Shown in pieces: positions 12,569 to 58,539 of a stretch of 64,000 bases of DNA. The position numbers were made by a program, and so were the translations under genes. This DNA is from a phage: sequence record PZ154896.1; one strand, given 5' to 3'. The notes below the pieces were generated by a model. It saw only the letters and a list, made by a program, of their open reading frames with translations. It was not told the DNA's origin and did no database searches. Position 1 is the stretch's first letter. Every line of letters begins with the position of its first letter.

Positions 12569-12988
12569 TTATGCAAAAGATGCTGGACAATATTTTTTGA
12601 TTTGGAACTCAGGAACTACCATGAACTGTCCAGCGAAAACGATGTTATAAAGCTTAACACCATCTTCTACCCATTGGTCCGAAATAAAACCAGCAACTTG
12701 ATTCGTTGTCCATGGAGACCCGTCAGTTGCAGAAGCAATAGTAAATTCATGGTCTTTTACAACTAAAACAGACCTGCATAGTTTCCATTTGAACGCTTTT
12801 TCTTCTGGTTCAATGAATTGGCTTTTAACATAACCAATGTTACCATCGGCGTCACGAACTTTAACTTGGTTACGTCCAAAAACCGGATCACTCACATAAA
12901 GAACTTCAACCAACTTCCCGGCAACTTTAGAGCGAGAAGCAACAGATACATATACGTAATCACCTGTAGAGAGATTTACAATATTCAT
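12569..12988 (-). CDS. Paralog family member A (139 aa), conserved C-terminal FISDQWVEDG domain
   Basis: ORF track; shares N-terminal SRSKxAGxLVEV and C-terminal motif with next gene. Confidence 0.6.
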   Translation of the reverse strand: MNIVNLSTGDYVYVSVASRSKVAGKLVEVLYVSDPVFGRNQVKVRDADGNIGYVKSQFIEPEEKAFKWKLCRSVLVVKDHEFTIASATDGSPWTTNQVAGFISDQWVEDGVKLYNIVFAGQFMVVPEFQIKKYCPASFA

Positions 12989-12997
12989 AATAATTCC

Positions 12998-13495
12998 TTA
13001 AGCTTTAAGAGGAGACACATAGCGAGTGATTTCAGATTCTTTAACAACTCGGAAGTCACCTAAGAATACGATATTGTATAACTTTTCGCCATCTTCAACC
13101 CATTGGTCACTAATGAAGCCACACATGATATCAGTTTTGCTTGGATAACCGTATTCGTCGATGTAATCAAATTCTTTATCGGTTATAAATTCAACACCTT
13201 TACACAAGGCCCATTTGAACTGTACATTAGGCTCAACGATATCGCTTGAAGCAAAGTGTGCAGGTGCAACTTCTTCGCTTGAAGCAAATTGGACTCGTAT
13301 ATGTTTTTCCAGGAATTTAGGACTTACGTAAGCATACTGGGCATCTTGTCCGCCAAAACTGGGCATGATTCGAACTTTAACTTCTTTAACACGTCCCATG
13401 CCGTTAGTACGAAGCCCTGCTACTTCAACCAGACGACCTGCAGCTTTAGAACGAGAAGCAGGAGATACACGAAGGATTTCACCAATAGTAATCAT
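12998..13495 (-). CDS. Paralog family member B (~165 aa)
   Basis: ORF track trimmed to MITIGEIL start; motifs SRSKAAGRLVEV and FISDQWVEDGEKLYNIVF. Confidence 0.6.
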   Translation of the reverse strand: MITIGEILRVSPASRSKAAGRLVEVAGLRTNGMGRVKEVKVRIMPSFGGQDAQYAYVSPKFLEKHIRVQFASSEEVAPAHFASSDIVEPNVQFKWALCKGVEFITDKEFDYIDEYGYPSKTDIMCGFISDQWVEDGEKLYNIVFLGDFRVVKESEITRYVSPLKA

Positions 13496-13525
13496 ATTTT
13501 TTCTCTCTTTGTTTAAGTTGAATTC

Positions 13526-13555
13526 ATTATACTCCATCCATCCTTGGATGTACAA
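13526..13555 (-). promoter_or_regulatory. Early promoter cassette (TTGTAC, 18 nt, TATAAT; core attatactccatccatccttggatgtaca)
   Basis: Sequence pattern. Confidence 0.5.
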
Positions 13556-13557
13556 CA

Positions 13558-14052
13558 TTAATTTAGAATATTAACTACTGCACTACGTGGAACCACACTA
13601 AAATCACCGGCATGAACAACGTTCAGAAGTTCAACCCCATCTTCAATCCACTGGTCAGTTACCCAGCCACTTACCGGTCCAGCGAATGGTCGTCGAATTG
13701 AAACAGCTTTACACAACAAATCAGTAGGCTCAATAGGCTTAATCAGAGTACCGTACATACAAGCGATATCCATATCAAAGTGGAGACCATCTTTAACAGG
13801 TGCTTCTTCAATCAACAGTTCAAAGTCGGTGCTTGGAATGGCGGTAGTAGAAATTATACCGTATGAATTTTTAATTTCTAAGAATAACCAAGGGCCTTCA
13901 GCTTGTTTGATAAAGTTAACAATAGTGAAACTATTACCTTGAGTGGCACCTAAAATTTCACAAAACTTTTCGTAAGCTCGCACTGAAGCACCGTACCAGT
14001 TGATTTGTTTTTCGTCTTTCAGGATGTAAGTAGCCGTAGTATTGATATTCAT
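13558..14052 (-). CDS. Paralog family member C (164 aa), C-terminal WVTDQWIEDG domain
   Basis: ORF track; C-terminal domain homologous to A and B. Confidence 0.6.
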   Translation of the reverse strand: MNINTTATYILKDEKQINWYGASVRAYEKFCEILGATQGNSFTIVNFIKQAEGPWLFLEIKNSYGIISTTAIPSTDFELLIEEAPVKDGLHFDMDIACMYGTLIKPIEPTDLLCKAVSIRRPFAGPVSGWVTDQWIEDGVELLNVVHAGDFSVVPRSAVVNILN

Positions 14053-14083: not shown

Positions 14084-14113
14084 ATTATACTCCAACCGTC
14101 CTTGGTTGTAAAC
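14084..14113 (-). promoter_or_regulatory. Early promoter cassette (GTTTAC, 18 nt, TATAAT; core attatactccaaccgtccttggttgtaaac)
   Basis: Sequence pattern. Confidence 0.5.
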
Positions 14114-52143: not shown

Positions 52144-52479
52144 TTAACCGCGGAGCTTATTGAGCTCTTCATAATCAATCCAGGATTCTAGCCCAGATGG
52201 CAAATCAGATTCAACGTTCCACAGAAGCTCTTCGATGGCTTGTAGGCGATTATATTCTTCAACAGTAATAGTAACCATTGTTTCAGGCTTTTTAACCATC
52301 ATGTCATTCATCAGAATGTACAGGTCTTCACAAACAGCCGGGTCGTCCCATGTCCATATTTCAGCATCTCGAACCAATGAAGTCGGAATCGAATTTAAAA
52401 CTTCAAGCTTAGTAGGAGCGTCAGGGCCGAGAAGAGTTGCTACAAATTTATACGCTTTGGCGAAATCAATATCGTTCAT
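52144..52479 (-). CDS. Hypothetical acidic protein (111 aa)
   Basis: ORF track. Confidence 0.5.
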   Translation of the reverse strand: MNDIDFAKAYKFVATLLGPDAPTKLEVLNSIPTSLVRDAEIWTWDDPAVCEDLYILMNDMMVKKPETMVTITVEEYNRLQAIEELLWNVESDLPSGLESWIDYEELNKLRG

Positions 52480-52737
52480 TTAAAATATTCTCGCAGTTGG
52501 TCAAATCCACCAATGTGACTTCCGTCAGGAGCAAACACTTGAGGCATAGTCAATCCGACTTGTGATTCACGTCCAAGCTTAACCAGAAGCTCAGCAATTT
52601 TCTCATCATCGAACACACCTTTTTCTGGCATAACATTAATGAATTCGAATGGCTGTTTCTTAACAGTCAGCAATCGTTTCGCATTATCACAATAAATGCA
52701 TTTATGAATAGTAGAGTCATACCCGTACACTTTAAAC
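52476..52737 (-). CDS. nrdC: Thioredoxin NrdC
   Basis: MFKVYGYDSTIHKCIYCDNAKRLLTVKKQPFEFINVMPEKGVFDDEKIAELL... matches T4 NrdC. Confidence 0.85.
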
Positions 52738-53145
52738 ATTATTTTTCCTTTCATCAATTAAATATGCAACGCCAAATACAATACATGTAATAAAACCTGT
52801 GATACAGATAGAAACCAACAACACTGTACCAAAGAACCAAATCAAGTTATCTTTAGTAGTTTGTTTGATATCCATCTCACGAATTTCTATAGCTATCGTA
52901 TCACCTTTATTAAGAAGCGTATAAAACGATGGTGATACATGCCTGTCAAAAACTCGACCTTGTTCATCTTTATAAACTGCAATAAATTCCAATTTAGAAT
53001 ATTTTCCTGTAGATTGACCTGAAATTAATTCCACTACCTCCACAGGAATTACTTTAGTTTCCATGTAAGTATTCTGGCTGTTCCAAATGAATGGAATGAC
53101 GGCAAAAACTAAAGCTGCAATAAAACAACGAAGGCTATATCTCAT
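52732..53145 (-). CDS. Membrane protein (137 aa)
   Basis: ORF track; N- and C-terminal TM segments. Confidence 0.5.
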   Translation of the reverse strand: MRYSLRCFIAALVFAVIPFIWNSQNTYMETKVIPVEVVELISGQSTGKYSKLEFIAVYKDEQGRVFDRHVSPSFYTLLNKGDTIAIEIREMDIKQTTKDNLIWFFGTVLLVSICITGFITCIVFGVAYLIDERKNNV

Positions 53146-53450
53146 TATAATGTTCTCTCAAATTTGTGGAAGCATTTACGGCATTTCAATTTCAAGTTAT
53201 CAGTGGTCCAGTTAACCAGTTGGACTTGGATAGTTCCACATTCCGGACATGGATGTTTTGCTGCCGATTTGGCAGCATTTTCACGTCGTTCAACCATTTT
53301 CATGATTTCGTTCCATGCCGGAGTAACGAACTCTTCTTCACCGTGGATTTTATCTCGCTGAACAAATTCAATCTTTGAACTATCGTCAATAAACTTAACC
53401 AAGCTGTGATTAGTGCTCATGTCAATATCCTCTAAAAGACGTAGTTTCAT
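53145..53450 (-). CDS. Zinc-ribbon protein (101 aa)
   Basis: C-terminal CPECG...CRKCFHKF. Confidence 0.5.
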   Translation of the reverse strand: MKLRLLEDIDMSTNHSLVKFIDDSSKIEFVQRDKIHGEEEFVTPAWNEIMKMVERRENAAKSAAKHPCPECGTIQVQLVNWTTDNLKLKCRKCFHKFERTL

Positions 53451-54400
53451 TATAAAACCTCAATGGCATTTCGTAAACCATCAGCTTTTGCATTCAGAGC
53501 TTTTAATGATTTAGTTTGTTCTGCAATCTGGACTTCGACTTCTTTCAGACGAGATTTGAGATATTCGCGTTCTTCTCTTAAGTTATCAACTTTTTCTACT
53601 TTAGGTTCTTTAATAGGCTTAGGCTTATACGTATTAGGGTTCTTCAGCTTAATTTGAATACGAGAACTGTATAACATTGAACCGTTATCTTCGGATTCGT
53701 CGAACGTTTCAACAACATCCATAGTCTCTAACAATGTAATAAGTTTATAAGACAACGAACGAACGGTTTTGTTATGCTTATTAATTTCTTCAGCTTTCAT
53801 GGTACCGAGATTACGTGAGTAGTAATAAGGAACCTGGATATCAATTGACAATGATGCGTTACCATTACCAGTTGGTTTGAATACTGCAGTAACCCAATCT
53901 TTAACATGAACTTTATTTGTACGACCATCACCGCCTGTGAATAATTTACGTGAATGTTTAAAAAGCATATTCACTTGATTATTAAATTCACAAGCAAATT
54001 TATCAGCAAATTTAGTTTCAGGAATGGTAGATAACCAATCAGCTAAATGAGTCTTTTTAACATCGTTAATAATAGTAAATTCAACCAAATCAGTTTTAGA
54101 TGTCACAGATTTAATAAAGCTCGGCTTCATAAAGTTTTTAATGTTATCGCGAGCTACAGTAGAAGATAATAAACGAGAACGTTTGAACCATTGAAGCAGT
54201 GTCCCTAATGAATGAGAATACGCATTCTGAGTATCTTTACAGATATGATTTTCTTGACCTGTGTATGTACCAAAATCTCGAAGAATACCACTTACTACAA
54301 CTCGGTGTGGAACATCAAATCCTAATGAACCAGAAGCACGTTGGGCATGAACGTTAGCGATAAGACCTGCAAAATAATCAATGTAATGTGAACGTGTCAT
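53450..54400 (-). CDS. Hypothetical protein (316 aa) with C-terminal coiled coil
   Basis: ORF track; heptad-like C-terminus; cassette promoter upstream. Confidence 0.55.
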   Translation of the reverse strand: MTRSHYIDYFAGLIANVHAQRASGSLGFDVPHRVVVSGILRDFGTYTGQENHICKDTQNAYSHSLGTLLQWFKRSRLLSSTVARDNIKNFMKPSFIKSVTSKTDLVEFTIINDVKKTHLADWLSTIPETKFADKFACEFNNQVNMLFKHSRKLFTGGDGRTNKVHVKDWVTAVFKPTGNGNASLSIDIQVPYYYSRNLGTMKAEEINKHNKTVRSLSYKLITLLETMDVVETFDESEDNGSMLYSSRIQIKLKNPNTYKPKPIKEPKVEKVDNLREEREYLKSRLKEVEVQIAEQTKSLKALNAKADGLRNAIEVL

Positions 54401-54428
54401 AATATTTTCCTCTCGTTAAGATAAAAAG

Positions 54429-54458
54429 ATTATACTCCAACCATCCTTGGTTGTAAAC
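54429..54458 (-). promoter_or_regulatory. Early promoter cassette (GTTTAC, 18 nt, TATAAT; core attatactccaaccatccttggttgtaaac)
   Basis: Same cassette as at ~14084 and ~55422. Confidence 0.5.
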
Positions 54459-54462
54459 TGAT

Positions 54463-55395
54463 TTATGATTTTAATGCATTCATTGCGTTAAAAAGTTTAG
54501 AGTACTGCAACTGGAGCTTAGTAACTACTTGTTGAGCATCACGAAGCTTAGCTTGTGCTTTGTCAAGTTCAACAGACAGTTGGTCCACAGTGGCTTTGAT
54601 TTGATTATAATAGTAATCTTCGGCAGGAAGAAGTCCGTTAGAGATTTCCAGTTTAGTCGACGGTGTGCCGTTAAACATAACAGGTTGTGCTGAAGCTGAA
54701 TTAATCTTACCGATAGTCGGGGCGACAATAATTGACGCTTCGAACGTTGCATTTTCCTTTTTAAGATTTTTATAATATTCAGAGTCTTTGTGCCACCATG
54801 GCGCAGGAACCTTTTTACCAATAGATACACGAGCCTGGATAGCGATATGGCCCTTATTCTTGATAATGTCTATAATATTAAGCTCACGAGAATAAATTGC
54901 TTTAATCTGGTGAATATTATCACCTAACACTTCCAACGCTTGGTGGAATACACGAGCAACGTTATCATTCTTAGGTTTATACGTAAGAGTGAACTCGTTC
55001 TCACTGATAACCATGATTTCTAACTTATCGTAAGTATATTTCAAATGTTTCATGTTAATTGCTTGAGGACGAATACGAGAAGCAATGGCCATCAGATTGT
55101 TAAGGTTATTTCTGAACTGTTTAGCAAAATATTGTCCATAACCGCCGATACAAAAATTACGAAGTTTCTGTTTGGCTAATAAACGGCTGAACTCACCATT
55201 TTTAATGAACTCTTTAACGGGTGTGTTAGTAACGCATTCAAATTGAGTAAACTTACGAGAATTAATCCCATAATATGAACAGATTTCCTCAATCTCTTCA
55301 GGAGTCTTTACAGGCATACGGATAGGATTAGGACCTGGGGTATATGCGTTCGAGGTAAATTCTTTGATAAGTTCTCTACGTGTAATAGAAGCCAT
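54463..55395 (-). CDS. Hypothetical protein (310 aa) with C-terminal coiled coil
   Basis: ORF track. Confidence 0.55.
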   Translation of the reverse strand: MASITRRELIKEFTSNAYTPGPNPIRMPVKTPEEIEEICSYYGINSRKFTQFECVTNTPVKEFIKNGEFSRLLAKQKLRNFCIGGYGQYFAKQFRNNLNNLMAIASRIRPQAINMKHLKYTYDKLEIMVISENEFTLTYKPKNDNVARVFHQALEVLGDNIHQIKAIYSRELNIIDIIKNKGHIAIQARVSIGKKVPAPWWHKDSEYYKNLKKENATFEASIIVAPTIGKINSASAQPVMFNGTPSTKLEISNGLLPAEDYYYNQIKATVDQLSVELDKAQAKLRDAQQVVTKLQLQYSKLFNAMNALKS

Positions 55396-55421
55396 TTTAT
55401 ATTCCTCATGTTGAAAAATTT

Positions 55422-55451
55422 ATTATACTCCAACCATCCTTGGTTGTACAT
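55422..55451 (-). promoter_or_regulatory. Early promoter cassette (ATGTAC, 18 nt, TATAAT)
   Basis: Sequence pattern. Confidence 0.5.
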
Positions 55452-56446
55452 CATTCCTTAAGAAGTTTTACTACTTGAATAAGATTAGCTCGTTCTGTTT
55501 TATTTTTACTGTTTAAGCCTGCTAATCGTGAGATTTCATCATCAGTCTGTTGAATAGTTACATTAAGTTCGTTAATCAAAGCTTCAAAGTATTTGATTTG
55601 CTCAGCATGTTTTGATTCAAATTTCTGAACCGGAATAACGTCTTGGTTTAGTTCATCAATAAGGTCTTTAAGAGCATCTTCTTGGTTGATATCATATTCA
55701 ACTTCTTTTATTTCTTCAACGAGCTCGTCTTTATATCTAACGTCTTTTAGTCCTGGTGCTGGTCCTGAAATCTCTTCTTTAAGAGTACAAACATATCCAA
55801 TACGGTATCCAATGCCGTCTCGCTTGATATCAACTTCGTCAATAAATCCACAATGTTTAAGACCAGAGCCGATTAGGTCAAAATATCCTTGACGTCGTCC
55901 TTCAAACGTTACACGAACTACTAAGACAGTTTTACCTGCAACCTTTTGAAGCTCACATTTATAAAAGTCTGTTGAACCTGAATAACGTGGATGAGTTTTA
56001 AAGTTCATCTGACGATCTAGGCCCATTTGTAAACGTGCTGATACAGCCAGAAAACGTGTTTGGTTCTCGTTAAGATGAGCAACAATCCATTTCAAAGGCA
56101 TTTTACACTGTTCACGACCGAACAAATCAGTACGTCCTAGATTACGCAGGATGTTGTTAGAGTTAATCATCGACAGAACGTTAAGTTTATTCAGCGCGCT
56201 GAAGATTCCATCGGCCATTGATTTTCCGTAACCTTTACACGCTTTAATAAGCGCTCGCGGTAGATTAGTATAGATTTCAGACGGCATATGAAAATCAAAT
56301 TTACTAGTCAGTAATTGATGAACTTGGATAGCAATTTGCTCATAATTAAGTGCTCTGCGATCATTATGGTCTTTAAACCACACTTTAATCTGTGAAGCAC
56401 ATAAACCGTTAATTTCATGTTTTACCGCATCAGATGTAATGCTCAT
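55451..56446 (-). CDS. Hypothetical protein (331 aa) with C-terminal coiled coil
   Basis: ORF track. Confidence 0.55.
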   Translation of the reverse strand: MSITSDAVKHEINGLCASQIKVWFKDHNDRRALNYEQIAIQVHQLLTSKFDFHMPSEIYTNLPRALIKACKGYGKSMADGIFSALNKLNVLSMINSNNILRNLGRTDLFGREQCKMPLKWIVAHLNENQTRFLAVSARLQMGLDRQMNFKTHPRYSGSTDFYKCELQKVAGKTVLVVRVTFEGRRQGYFDLIGSGLKHCGFIDEVDIKRDGIGYRIGYVCTLKEEISGPAPGLKDVRYKDELVEEIKEVEYDINQEDALKDLIDELNQDVIPVQKFESKHAEQIKYFEALINELNVTIQQTDDEISRLAGLNSKNKTERANLIQVVKLLKE

Positions 56447-56508
56447 AACTATTTCCTCAGATTGAATTGGAACTCAAAACCATTATAACCCGTCCTTGGG
56501 TAAAGCGT

Positions 56509-57520: not shown

Positions 57521-58501
57521 TTATTTCAGTAAAGTTACTTCAGAGATTTCCTCCCAACCATCTTTATCAGTTGAAATAAAATCTGCTACATAAAGAGCCG
57601 TACGTAATGATACATTGCGAAGACGAGATACGTTAGCCTTCATCCAGGACAATGCTTTATACGTTTCTGCATCTGTCAGACCACGTTTCTGCATCATGTC
57701 AGTAGATAATATTACGTCTTCAACTCGAACCATAATCTCTTCATTAGAGTGTACTCCAAGGTCGAGATACACTGAACGAGATACTAAAGCTTGAAGGTGT
57801 GGGGCAAGTTTCGAACCGCGTTCTAACTCTTTATCGATATCAACGTTTGTAATGAAAACGATAGTACCTTCAAACTCAAATTCTTTATCAATACCCTTAT
57901 CATCGAGATAAGATGACGCAGTGCTCCAGCAAACTTTGCGTTTATCTCCAGTATCTAATGCTGCTTTAAGAAGGTTCAAGATGTCCATATCTGAGAATAC
58001 GTCAACGTCGTCGATTAAGAGAACGCTGTCTGCATCACGGTTGAGCCAAAGTTGTTCGTAAAGGCCGATACCAGAGATTTTACCATTAATGCTTTTATAT
58101 TTGATGAAACCGTTATCATTAGCATTATTAAGTGCTTTATCCAGAGAATACGTCTTACCAATACCAGCTGCACCTGAAATAATGAGTGAACGAATTTTAC
58201 CATCGATAATGCCATTCGTCATCATGTTCATTACTTTAAAGCGTTTGTTGATACGAGTTTTCATATCTTCAGTGCTTTCAACGACTGCAACCGGTGACGT
58301 CTCAACTCCTTCCATTACGATGTCTGATTTGAAGACCCATACTCCACGTTCAGAACCATCAATCATAACGAAAATTTTACCATCACCTAAGTGGGAACAT
58401 TCAGGATTAAGCTTTGCTGGGAACCATGTCTTTGTGGCAACATAAGAACCAGAGATTTCGTTATTACGATAGATACCTTTTTTGATTTGAACGTTGAACA
58501 T
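57521..58501 (-). CDS. P-loop NTPase (AAA-like), function unknown
   Basis: Walker A ISGAAGIGKT, Walker B VLLIDDVD; start moved to MFNVQIK where a GGAG RBS exists. Confidence 0.55.
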   Translation of the reverse strand: MFNVQIKKGIYRNNEISGSYVATKTWFPAKLNPECSHLGDGKIFVMIDGSERGVWVFKSDIVMEGVETSPVAVVESTEDMKTRINKRFKVMNMMTNGIIDGKIRSLIISGAAGIGKTYSLDKALNNANDNGFIKYKSINGKISGIGLYEQLWLNRDADSVLLIDDVDVFSDMDILNLLKAALDTGDKRKVCWSTASSYLDDKGIDKEFEFEGTIVFITNVDIDKELERGSKLAPHLQALVSRSVYLDLGVHSNEEIMVRVEDVILSTDMMQKRGLTDAETYKALSWMKANVSRLRNVSLRTALYVADFISTDKDGWEEISEVTLLK

Positions 58502-58539
58502 TTTATTCTCCAATTTACTCATTTCGTTTCGATAGGTCT

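Follow-up and report, generated by a model that had tools for sequence, protein, structure and literature searches.

We analysed three consecutive genes at positions 53450–56446 of a 64,000-nt stretch of phage DNA (sequence record PZ154896.1), referred to here as the window. An initial annotation, made from the sequence alone, had pointed out these genes, and the three open reading frames (ORFs) were found exactly as it described them, all on the minus strand and encoding proteins of 316, 310 and 331 amino acids (aa). The window has a G+C content of ≈37%, and nearly all of its genes lie on the minus strand. A 4.1-kb stretch around the three genes shows 97–98% (97.9%) nucleotide identity to many genomes of Mosigvirus, the RB69/JS09-type T4-like coliphages, and the window is, by its sequence, a Mosigvirus (RB69/JS09-like) genome. 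The genes are:

53450..54400, minus strand: nrdC.3-type gene, group C3, 316 aa (ORF; phrog_1435 member; RB69/JS09 annotation)
54463..55395, minus strand: nrdC.5-type gene, group C5, 310 aa (ORF; Pfam DUF7235, PF23882; RB69/JS09 annotation)
55451..56446, minus strand: nrdC.6-type gene, group C6, 331 aa (ORF; phrog_2257; close homologues with PF26899; RB69/JS09 annotation)

In JS09, the counterparts of the three ORFs are annotated as nrdC.3, nrdC.5 and nrdC.6 and are flanked by nrdC.8 and nrdC.2/nrdC.7/nrdC. The array lies just upstream of nrdC, the true thioredoxin gene of the block. The 316-aa protein matched phrog_1435 over its full length (residues 1–316, E = 1.3e-103) and is 57% identical to T4 NrdC.3; T4 NrdC.3 and T4 NrdC.4 both match phrog_1435, so that PHROGs puts them in one family. 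The 310-aa protein matched the DUF7235 model (PF23882; gathering score 30 bits) with 367.9 bits (E = 6e-110), residues 15–309 being aligned to model positions 1–307. T4 NrdC.5 matched the same model with 420.6 bits (E = 5e-126), and the two proteins are 24–31% identical. The 331-aa protein matched phrog_2257 (E = 1e-127), and PF26899 is precomputed on all 108 of its homologues, including P0038 (99% identity). Our own Pfam scan of the 331-aa protein gave no PF26899 match, the model apparently being missing from the Pfam copy searched. The three genes are known hypothetical genes of RB69-type phages.

Many GenBank records call at least seven genes of this block “thioredoxin”, a label that derives from the gene names nrdC.1–nrdC.11 (nrdC.N); only nrdC (window 52476–52757) is thioredoxin/glutaredoxin-like. 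A thioredoxin identity of the three proteins was considered and rejected, since none of them had a thioredoxin-family match in Pfam or NCBIfam (E ≤ 1) and the CxxC active-site motif was found in none of the three sequences. This corrects a widely propagated mis-annotation.

Probable remote homology and predicted common architecture of the three proteins

Pairwise BLASTP comparisons among the three window proteins showed no similarity, and Pfam and PHROGs hold three separate families: phrog_1435; phrog_2351 (equivalent to DUF7235), to which the 310-aa protein belongs; and phrog_2257 (equivalent to PF26899). A word-indexed homologue search with the 310-aa protein recovered only relatives of at least 78% identity, and missed T4-type NrdC.5 even as a profile. 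Profile comparisons were made with hhalign from alignments of four groups (C3, C4, C5 and C6), built with the loci from T4, JS09, IME08 (Dhakavirus), Manna, moha and four IMG/VR contigs, a search of IMG/VR for related loci having yielded four loci. C3 and C4 matched at 97–98% probability, C4 and C5 at 32–89%, and the direct comparison of C6 with C3, C4 or C5 was not significant (E 0.02–0.07).

An exhaustive HMMER search with the C6 profile against 1.84 billion representative proteins gave only 15 matches, which makes C6 a very narrow family. Four of the 15 were full-length distant intermediates (P0151, P0152, P0154 and P0156; E 9e-9 to 8e-5), and the proteins closest to P0151 in the phage collection (25–28% identity) came from Enterobacter, Kosakonia, Edwardsiella and Pectobacterium T4-like phages. 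An alignment of these intermediates matched C6 at 99% probability (E 9e-19), C5 at 97.5% (E 6e-12, over 216 collinear columns) and C4 at 43–77%, and the link to C6 was obtained only through them. A merged C3 and C4 profile matched C5, C6 and the intermediates together at 95–98% probability. When the last 60 residues were removed, the profile matches remained collinear (E 5e-11 to 3e-4), indicating that the signal extends beyond coiled-coil composition.

Signs of the C-terminal coiled coils proposed by the initial annotation were found. A crude heptad score was maximal in the last ≈50 residues of each protein, with z values of 3.5 (316 aa), 4.2 (310 aa) and 3.2 (331 aa), and was reached by 0/300, 0/300 and 1/300 composition-matched shuffles, respectively. 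Models made with AlphaFold2 (AF2), which cover the 310-aa and 331-aa proteins, both have a long C-terminal helix. In the 310-aa protein it spans residues 258–309, with predicted local distance difference test (pLDDT) values of 64–83; in the 331-aa protein there are helices at 281–307 and 313–330. The mean pLDDT was 71 for the 331-aa model and 50 (poor) for the 310-aa model, which was not used for fold searching. The order of elements is equal in the two models: helices, a β-hairpin, a helix, a β-hairpin, a low-confidence linker and the long C-terminal helix. The C-terminal features are:

53453..53593, minus strand: heptad/helical module of the 316-aa protein, approximately residues 270–316, ending ...GLRNAIEVL (heptad score; right-anchored motif)
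54466..54624, minus strand: long helix of the 310-aa protein, residues 258–310, ending ...SKLFNAMNALKS (AF2; heptad score; motif)
55454..55606, minus strand: helical module of the 331-aa protein, residues 281–331, ending ...ERANLIQVVKLLKE (AF2; heptad score; motif)

When anchored on the right, all groups share a gapless end module of ≈50 residues, at most two residues from the C-terminus, with the motif ...E.(H/Y)....I...I.EL...I......I..L.G...K...(Q/E)R.KL..A...L(K/N). This helical module is a putative oligomerisation element, and probably acts as one. Searched against BFVD, the 331-aa model matched uncharacterised proteins of ≈300–335 aa from many T4-like genera (E 1e-8 to 1e-3), including those of Pectobacterium, Acinetobacter, Enterobacter, Klebsiella, Yersinia, Serratia and Aeromonas T4-like phages, as well as 308–313-aa Tequatrovirus proteins unassigned to a paralogue group.

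The 3′ end of nrdC.6 in the T4 reference NC_000866 (7497–7640 of our T4 locus, L002) carries a 1-nt deletion relative to close relatives, causing a frameshift. The annotated T4 NrdC.6 (275 aa) lacks the conserved C-terminal module, although a different frame still encodes it (...DDEIFRLSGLSSKAKSEREKLIKIVDLLKS). Judging by the sequence, the deletion is a sequence error or else a mutation that turns nrdC.6 into a pseudogene.

The comparisons make it very probable that the three proteins are remote paralogues, forming one superfamily with T4 NrdC.4. The initial annotation had seen a single family with variable N-terminal domains. The family stands, as a set of distant paralogues with a common central region and C-terminal module, and the remote homology search that the annotation had suggested did detect the relationship, by way of the intermediates. 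The variable N-terminal domains stand in part: BLASTP finds nothing among the three, but the remote homology covers most of each protein and is not confined to the C-terminus.

We considered the possibility that the three proteins are unrelated, similar only by convergence in size and in a generic coiled coil at the C-terminus, so that the profile matches would be helical-repeat artefacts. The failure of BLASTP, the non-significant direct comparisons of C6 with C3, C4 and C5, and the division into three PHROGs and Pfam families are all consistent with this possibility. However, the intermediates join C6 and C5 at 97–99% probability over more than 200 collinear columns, and the signal survives the loss of the last 60 residues. 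Furthermore, the non-coiled motifs ...SR/A..A...L.NF... and ...A.RL..G... are common to the proteins and occur in the same order, the C-terminal module lies at a fixed distance from the C-terminus in all groups, the secondary-structure order is equal in both AF2 models, and a natural in-register chimera of C6 and C4 exists in Manna (described below). Convergence of unrelated proteins is thus improbable.

Some points nevertheless weigh against the assignment of the proteins to one superfamily. The direct C6 profile comparisons were not significant, and the C3–C6 link, the weakest of the links, is transitive. It also depends in part on MAFFT-merged profiles and on the helical C-terminus, either of which may raise scores artificially. 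The AF2 model of the 310-aa protein is poor, and models cover two of the three proteins.

The three genes are the Mosigvirus versions of T4 nrdC.3, nrdC.5 and nrdC.6. Together with T4 nrdC.4 they would constitute a single family of paralogues, old and rapidly diverging, that is restricted to T4-like phages. The predicted common architecture would comprise an N-terminal helical region, a β-hairpin/helix/β-hairpin core, a variable disordered linker and the conserved ≈50-residue C-terminal helical module. The proposal that NrdC.3, NrdC.4, NrdC.5 and NrdC.6 form one superfamily, which includes an anti-Dsr1 protein, is new here.

Promoter cassettes and gene content of the array

A 27-mer, TACAACCAAGGATGGTTGGAGTATAAT, occurs without mismatch on the minus strand at 54429–54455 and 55422–55448, forming 27/27-nt direct repeats that flank nrdC.5 at a distance of 993 bp. 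It is also present on the minus strand at 14084–14110 (1 mismatch), a copy that the initial annotation had reported as well, and at 13526–13552 (2 mismatches); the chance expectation is 0.00. The promoter-related features, all on the minus strand, are:

54429..54457: T4-type early promoter cassette upstream of nrdC.3 (TTTACA, 17-nt spacer, TATAAT)
54438..54453: hairpin CAACCA-AGGA-TGGTTG within this spacer, followed by GGAG
55422..55450: second cassette copy, upstream of nrdC.5 (TGTACA, 17-nt spacer, TATAAT), with the same hairpin at 55431–55446
56482..56504: hairpin-plus-(−10) element upstream of nrdC.6 (TTTACC overlapping the stem ACCC-AAGGAC-GGGT, then TATAAT)
13526..13552: cassette copy elsewhere, with the compensated stem CATCCA-AGGA-TGGATG
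14084..14110: cassette copy downstream of dexA, 1 mismatch, loop AAGGAC
54438..54453, 55431..55446, 56488..56501, 13535..13550 and 14093..14108: AAGGAY hairpins of the window

In a sigma-70 promoter test, TTTACA-17-TATAAT scored 11/12 and TGTACA-17-TATAAT 10/12. The initial annotation had placed the same promoter cassette before each of the three genes. This holds for nrdC.3 and nrdC.5, but the element upstream of nrdC.6 differs. It shares the CCAAGGAYGG hairpin core and TATAAT with the cassette, but its TTTACC is just 11 nt from the −10 box, so that it fails the sigma-70-like promoter test and is not a canonical promoter. The nrdC.6-upstream element is also found downstream of nrdC.8 in T4 and IME08.

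Between the −35 and −10 boxes, each cassette has an inverted repeat whose conserved loop reads AAGGAY. Among the variants collected from the window and related loci (L002, which is T4, and L005–L008, of which L008 is Manna), six stems occur with the same loop: CAACC/GGTTG, CATCC/GGATG, AGCC/GGCT, GCCAC/GTGGT, ACCC/GGGT and ATACC/GGTAT. Without prefiltering for pairing, at least four contiguous Watson–Crick pairs were present in 19 of the 22 distinct AAGGAY-plus-TATAA contexts, where the per-site chance is ≈0.5%. In an alignment of seven variants, 94% of the cells were paired and four of the five pairs had double changes; the covariation score was reached by 0/500 shuffles, and pairing dropped to 20–49% when the stem alignment was slid out of register. 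The predicted RNA hairpin is weak, at −6 to −7 kcal/mol (−6.9), which is no better than shuffles (z −0.03 to −0.8). No U-tract follows it. A role as an intrinsic terminator was judged unlikely because of the weak stem and the lack of a U-tract. A covarying hairpin in the promoter spacer, which makes this an unusual type of promoter, is new here.

Alternatively, the palindrome might form no hairpin in RNA or DNA, being instead the binding site of a dimeric protein or owing its symmetry to templated repair within palindromes. The low predicted stability, no higher than that of shuffled sequence, would agree with this, and the conserved CCAAGGAYGG loop and core could be a recognition sequence. 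However, six stems with one loop coexist, several of them in one genome, and it is unlikely that one protein would read six different half-sites. The pairing and covariation statistics given above also argue against it, and we regard this explanation as unlikely.

The stem is usually followed by GGAG-TATAAT, and GGAGTATAAT is found on the minus strand at 54429–54437 and 55422–55430. In combination, GGAG and the −10 TATAAT are similar to the 11-nt target consensus for RegB/S1 cleavage, GGAGAAUAAAA (PMC1702504). Judging from this resemblance, GGAG is a candidate site at which read-through transcripts might be cut by RegB.

The initial annotation suggested that the array was built by cassette duplication, and the 27/27 identity of the direct repeats, their 993-bp spacing and the similar gene lengths could be taken as remnants of a recent tandem duplication of a gene-plus-promoter unit, but this origin was rejected as very improbable, since the flanked and neighbouring genes have no detectable nucleotide or BLASTP similarity and the cassette is also found ≈40 kb away beside unrelated genes and in Dhakavirus IME08. 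The latter occurrences indicate that the cassette is conserved or propagated independently of the coding sequence. With coding sequences that have diverged past BLASTP detection, identical cassettes are not a relic of the gene duplications; their identity must be maintained or spread separately, through selection, gene conversion or exchange of the promoter early stem-loop (PeSL) type.

PeSL elements consist of a short conserved early promoter and a stem-loop between dispensable ORFs in a hyperplastic region (Arbiol 2010, PMC2839356; Comeau 2014, PMC4122927), as is the case here. PeSL copies flank variable ORFs, and recombination between copies leads to insertions and deletions (indels), which is likewise seen in this array (21 of 156 records, with a precise junction in AV118; see below). 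The published stem-loop lies just upstream of the promoter (PMC2839356, PMC4122927), whereas here it is inside the 17-nt spacer between the −35 and −10 boxes, and the window cassette is thus a variant of the PeSL architecture. Here, too, the AAGGAY loop is conserved while the stems covary, and there is no U-tract.

A second tandem array, of three ORFs encoding 164, ≈165 and 139 aa, lies downstream of dexA (12569–14052, minus strand). These ORFs share only a C-terminal motif, G(W/F)(V/I)(T/S)DQW(I/V)EDG..L.N(I/V)V..G.F.VV (E 4e-10 and 1e-11), and two of them are located behind the cassette copies at 14084 and 13526. The layout is the same as in the nrdC array: a variable body, a conserved C-terminus and cassettes at the boundaries.

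The number of paralogues differs between phages. There are four copies in T4 (nrdC.3, nrdC.4, nrdC.5 and nrdC.6 in a row), three in the window and two in Manna; T-even phages have 2–4 tandem copies, and a more distant relative, Kanagawavirus IME523, has one. IME08 (Dhakavirus) has three, namely nrdC.6, an nrdC.5-type ORF and nrdC.4. The three copies in moha are accompanied by an extra 66-aa ORF between nrdC.6 and nrdC.5 (L009 6975–7175) that is absent from the window and, on sequence comparison, is a further indel at the same joint.

In AV118, AV115 and JM17, the match to the array region is ≈993 bp shorter than the window. The junction was read base by base in one phage, AV118, where a single hybrid cassette remains, its left flank corresponding to the nrdC.5 copy and its right flank to the nrdC.3 copy. 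A search with the AV118 junction showed nrdC.6 directly adjoining nrdC.3, with nrdC.5 absent, in 21 of 156 Mosigvirus records. Mosigviruses without nrdC.5 include AV109, AV114, AV115, AV116, AV118, JM10, JM17, p000v and F2. Junction identity across the records without nrdC.5 ranged from 90.6% to 100%, indicating that its absence is a polymorphism established across lineages. Such loss or gain of nrdC.5 is what PeSL-type recombination between cassettes would produce, following the Arbiol and Comeau model. The idea of a modular family put forward in the initial annotation, which had also called for a check of presence and absence across related genomes, is substantiated at this joint, where nrdC.5 lies between identical cassettes. 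The cassette-bounded presence/absence polymorphism, with the AV118 junction resolved to the base, is new here; with this documented junction of a deletion, the concept of gene shuffling by PeSL-type cassettes now extends to RB69-type phages.

The first gene of the Manna array (L008 6001–7038) encodes a 345-aa in-frame chimera: residues 1–262 are 93% identical to T4 NrdC.6, the final 83 match the C-terminus of T4 NrdC.4 at 96% identity, and nrdC.5 and parts of both neighbours have been deleted. From the alignment, the two paralogues recombined at equivalent positions, deleting what lay between. The gene for the membrane protein NrdC.7 adjoins nrdC in the window (52732–53145, minus strand) and in JS09, and in T4 it lies between nrdC.8 and nrdC.6 (L002 8402–8803), directly behind the hairpin-plus-(−10) element. 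By its position, this relocation between window/JS09 and T4 is another rearrangement at a cassette. The gene content of the array would thus be reshuffled by homologous recombination between near-identical early-promoter cassettes, in the PeSL manner, and occasionally by recombination between the paralogues themselves.

The gaps between the three paralogues, of 55–62 nt, bear the cassettes. In contrast, the 316-aa gene ends in a stop codon that overlaps the start codon of nrdC.2, the 101-aa gene downstream (TAATG at 53445–53455), an arrangement that suggests translational coupling. Further along the block, a 333-aa NrdC.10 homologue (57521–58522, minus strand) has weak AAA_22 (E = 2e-4) and nSTAND3 (E = 4.5e-3) matches of the P-loop/AAA, STAND-like kind and an HTH_37-like match at its C-terminus (E = 1.6e-3), all below the Pfam cut-offs.

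Proposed anti-defence function

The initial annotation regarded the function of the three genes as unknown, which was too pessimistic, because T4 nrdC.5, whose product belongs to the same Pfam family as the 310-aa protein, counteracts Dsr1, a SIR2-type (sirtuin) defence (PMC9391042). A T4 clone that had evolved to lose nrdC.5 did not plate on ECOR17 or on MG1655 carrying ECOR17 dsr1 (PMC9391042), and plasmid-borne T4 nrdC.5 supplied in trans restored plating on Dsr1+ cells (Srikant, Guegler & Laub 2022, PMC9391042). The nrdC.1–6 block is deletable, having been lost from a viable genome-reduced T4 (PMC9825161). The Avs7-type sensor of Dsr1 recognises the phage major capsid protein (MCP) (PMC13581612). 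As this trigger appears late, we suggest that an inhibitor made early in infection could already have occupied or disabled the sensor by then.

Like T4 NrdC.5, the 310-aa protein is a full-length DUF7235 protein encoded by an early gene at the same position in the nrdC.6-nrdC.5-nrdC.3 array, and both have the C-terminal motif ...QxSKLxNAxNAL. It differs in having 30 fewer residues and large indels in its N-terminal region and linker, and the other two window genes are only remote paralogues. A functional analogy is offered by DSAD1, a phage anti-DSR2 protein that blocks a SIR2 NADase defence by direct binding (PMC10973363, PMC10981675), although it has a different target (DSR2), comes from a different phage group and has no detected sequence or fold similarity to the window proteins. 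The anti-toxin–antitoxin (anti-TA) island and accessory host-range clusters of T4 (dmd, tifA, adfA) likewise consist of early genes of small to medium size that are dispensable but, when lost, leave the phage with a narrower host range; members of those clusters are mutually unrelated, whereas the nrdC array consists of paralogues of one family.

Sequence and structure searches, including profiles against PDB sequences, gave no match between the window proteins and a known anti-defence protein or solved structure. NCBIfam and PADLOC searches returned nothing meaningful, and no enzyme motifs or known domains were found in the three proteins. In the literature, we found no functional study of nrdC.3, nrdC.4, nrdC.6, DUF7235 or PF26899.

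The rapid divergence, dispensability, variable copy number and early expression of the genes fit an anti-defence array. By analogy with T4 NrdC.5, we favour, with some reservation, the interpretation that the array is a diversifying set of dispensable early anti-defence proteins. The tandem early genes would encode host-range determinants, with the overcoming of Dsr1 by T4 NrdC.5 as the model for the window proteins, and the divergent body of each paralogue would serve to bind, and thereby neutralise, a separate immune sensor of the host at an early stage of infection.

The strongest competing explanation is that the family is real, but that it acts in host takeover or phage metabolism, the effect of T4 NrdC.5 on Dsr1 being indirect or specific to that paralogue. 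The early genes do lie among the nucleotide-metabolism genes around nrdC and nrdD, no mechanism of Dsr1 evasion has been published, and the syntenic position is kept in many T4-like genera, making the genes more conserved than many anti-defence genes. Against this, the region is dispensable in T4, and presence and copy number differ even among near-identical phages. The genes also diverge far faster than their neighbours, NrdC.8 being easily alignable between T4 and the window while C5 is ≈25% identical, and there are no enzyme motifs or known domains. A takeover or metabolic role is therefore rather unlikely, though it is the alternative that fares best.

Several considerations count against an anti-defence role of the array. 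For the window proteins this role is assigned by analogy rather than by an experiment of their own, and the functional datum concerns just one of the four paralogue groups, where direct and indirect evasion of Dsr1 are both possible. At 24–31% identity to T4 NrdC.5, the 310-aa protein may have a different specificity or have lost it. The absence of a match to any known anti-defence protein or solved structure points the same way.

A more far-reaching and tentative form of the anti-defence interpretation is that NrdC.3, NrdC.4, NrdC.5 and NrdC.6 might constitute a modular inhibitor platform, in which a conserved C-terminal oligomerising helix is combined with diversifying “warheads”, each directed at a different immune sensor, with Dsr1 being only the first known target. 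The modules would be swapped and chimerised through the cassettes, whose spacer hairpin would be a functional covarying element, for example an RNA processing or recombination signal. If true, this would provide three or four new anti-defence specificities at once, together with a natural exchange system.

Anti-defence genes of T-even phages have been found one at a time, and T4 nrdC.5 is the only characterised gene of this block. The two to three tandem paralogues of T4 nrdC.5 in every T-even phage and the single homologues in other T4-like genera make up a short list of candidates for counter-defence. The 21 of 156 records that lack nrdC.5 constitute a natural experiment, making host-range comparisons among near-identical phages possible. 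The finding thus does not amount to a new kind of system; what it offers is a concrete set of candidates to screen for anti-defence activity.

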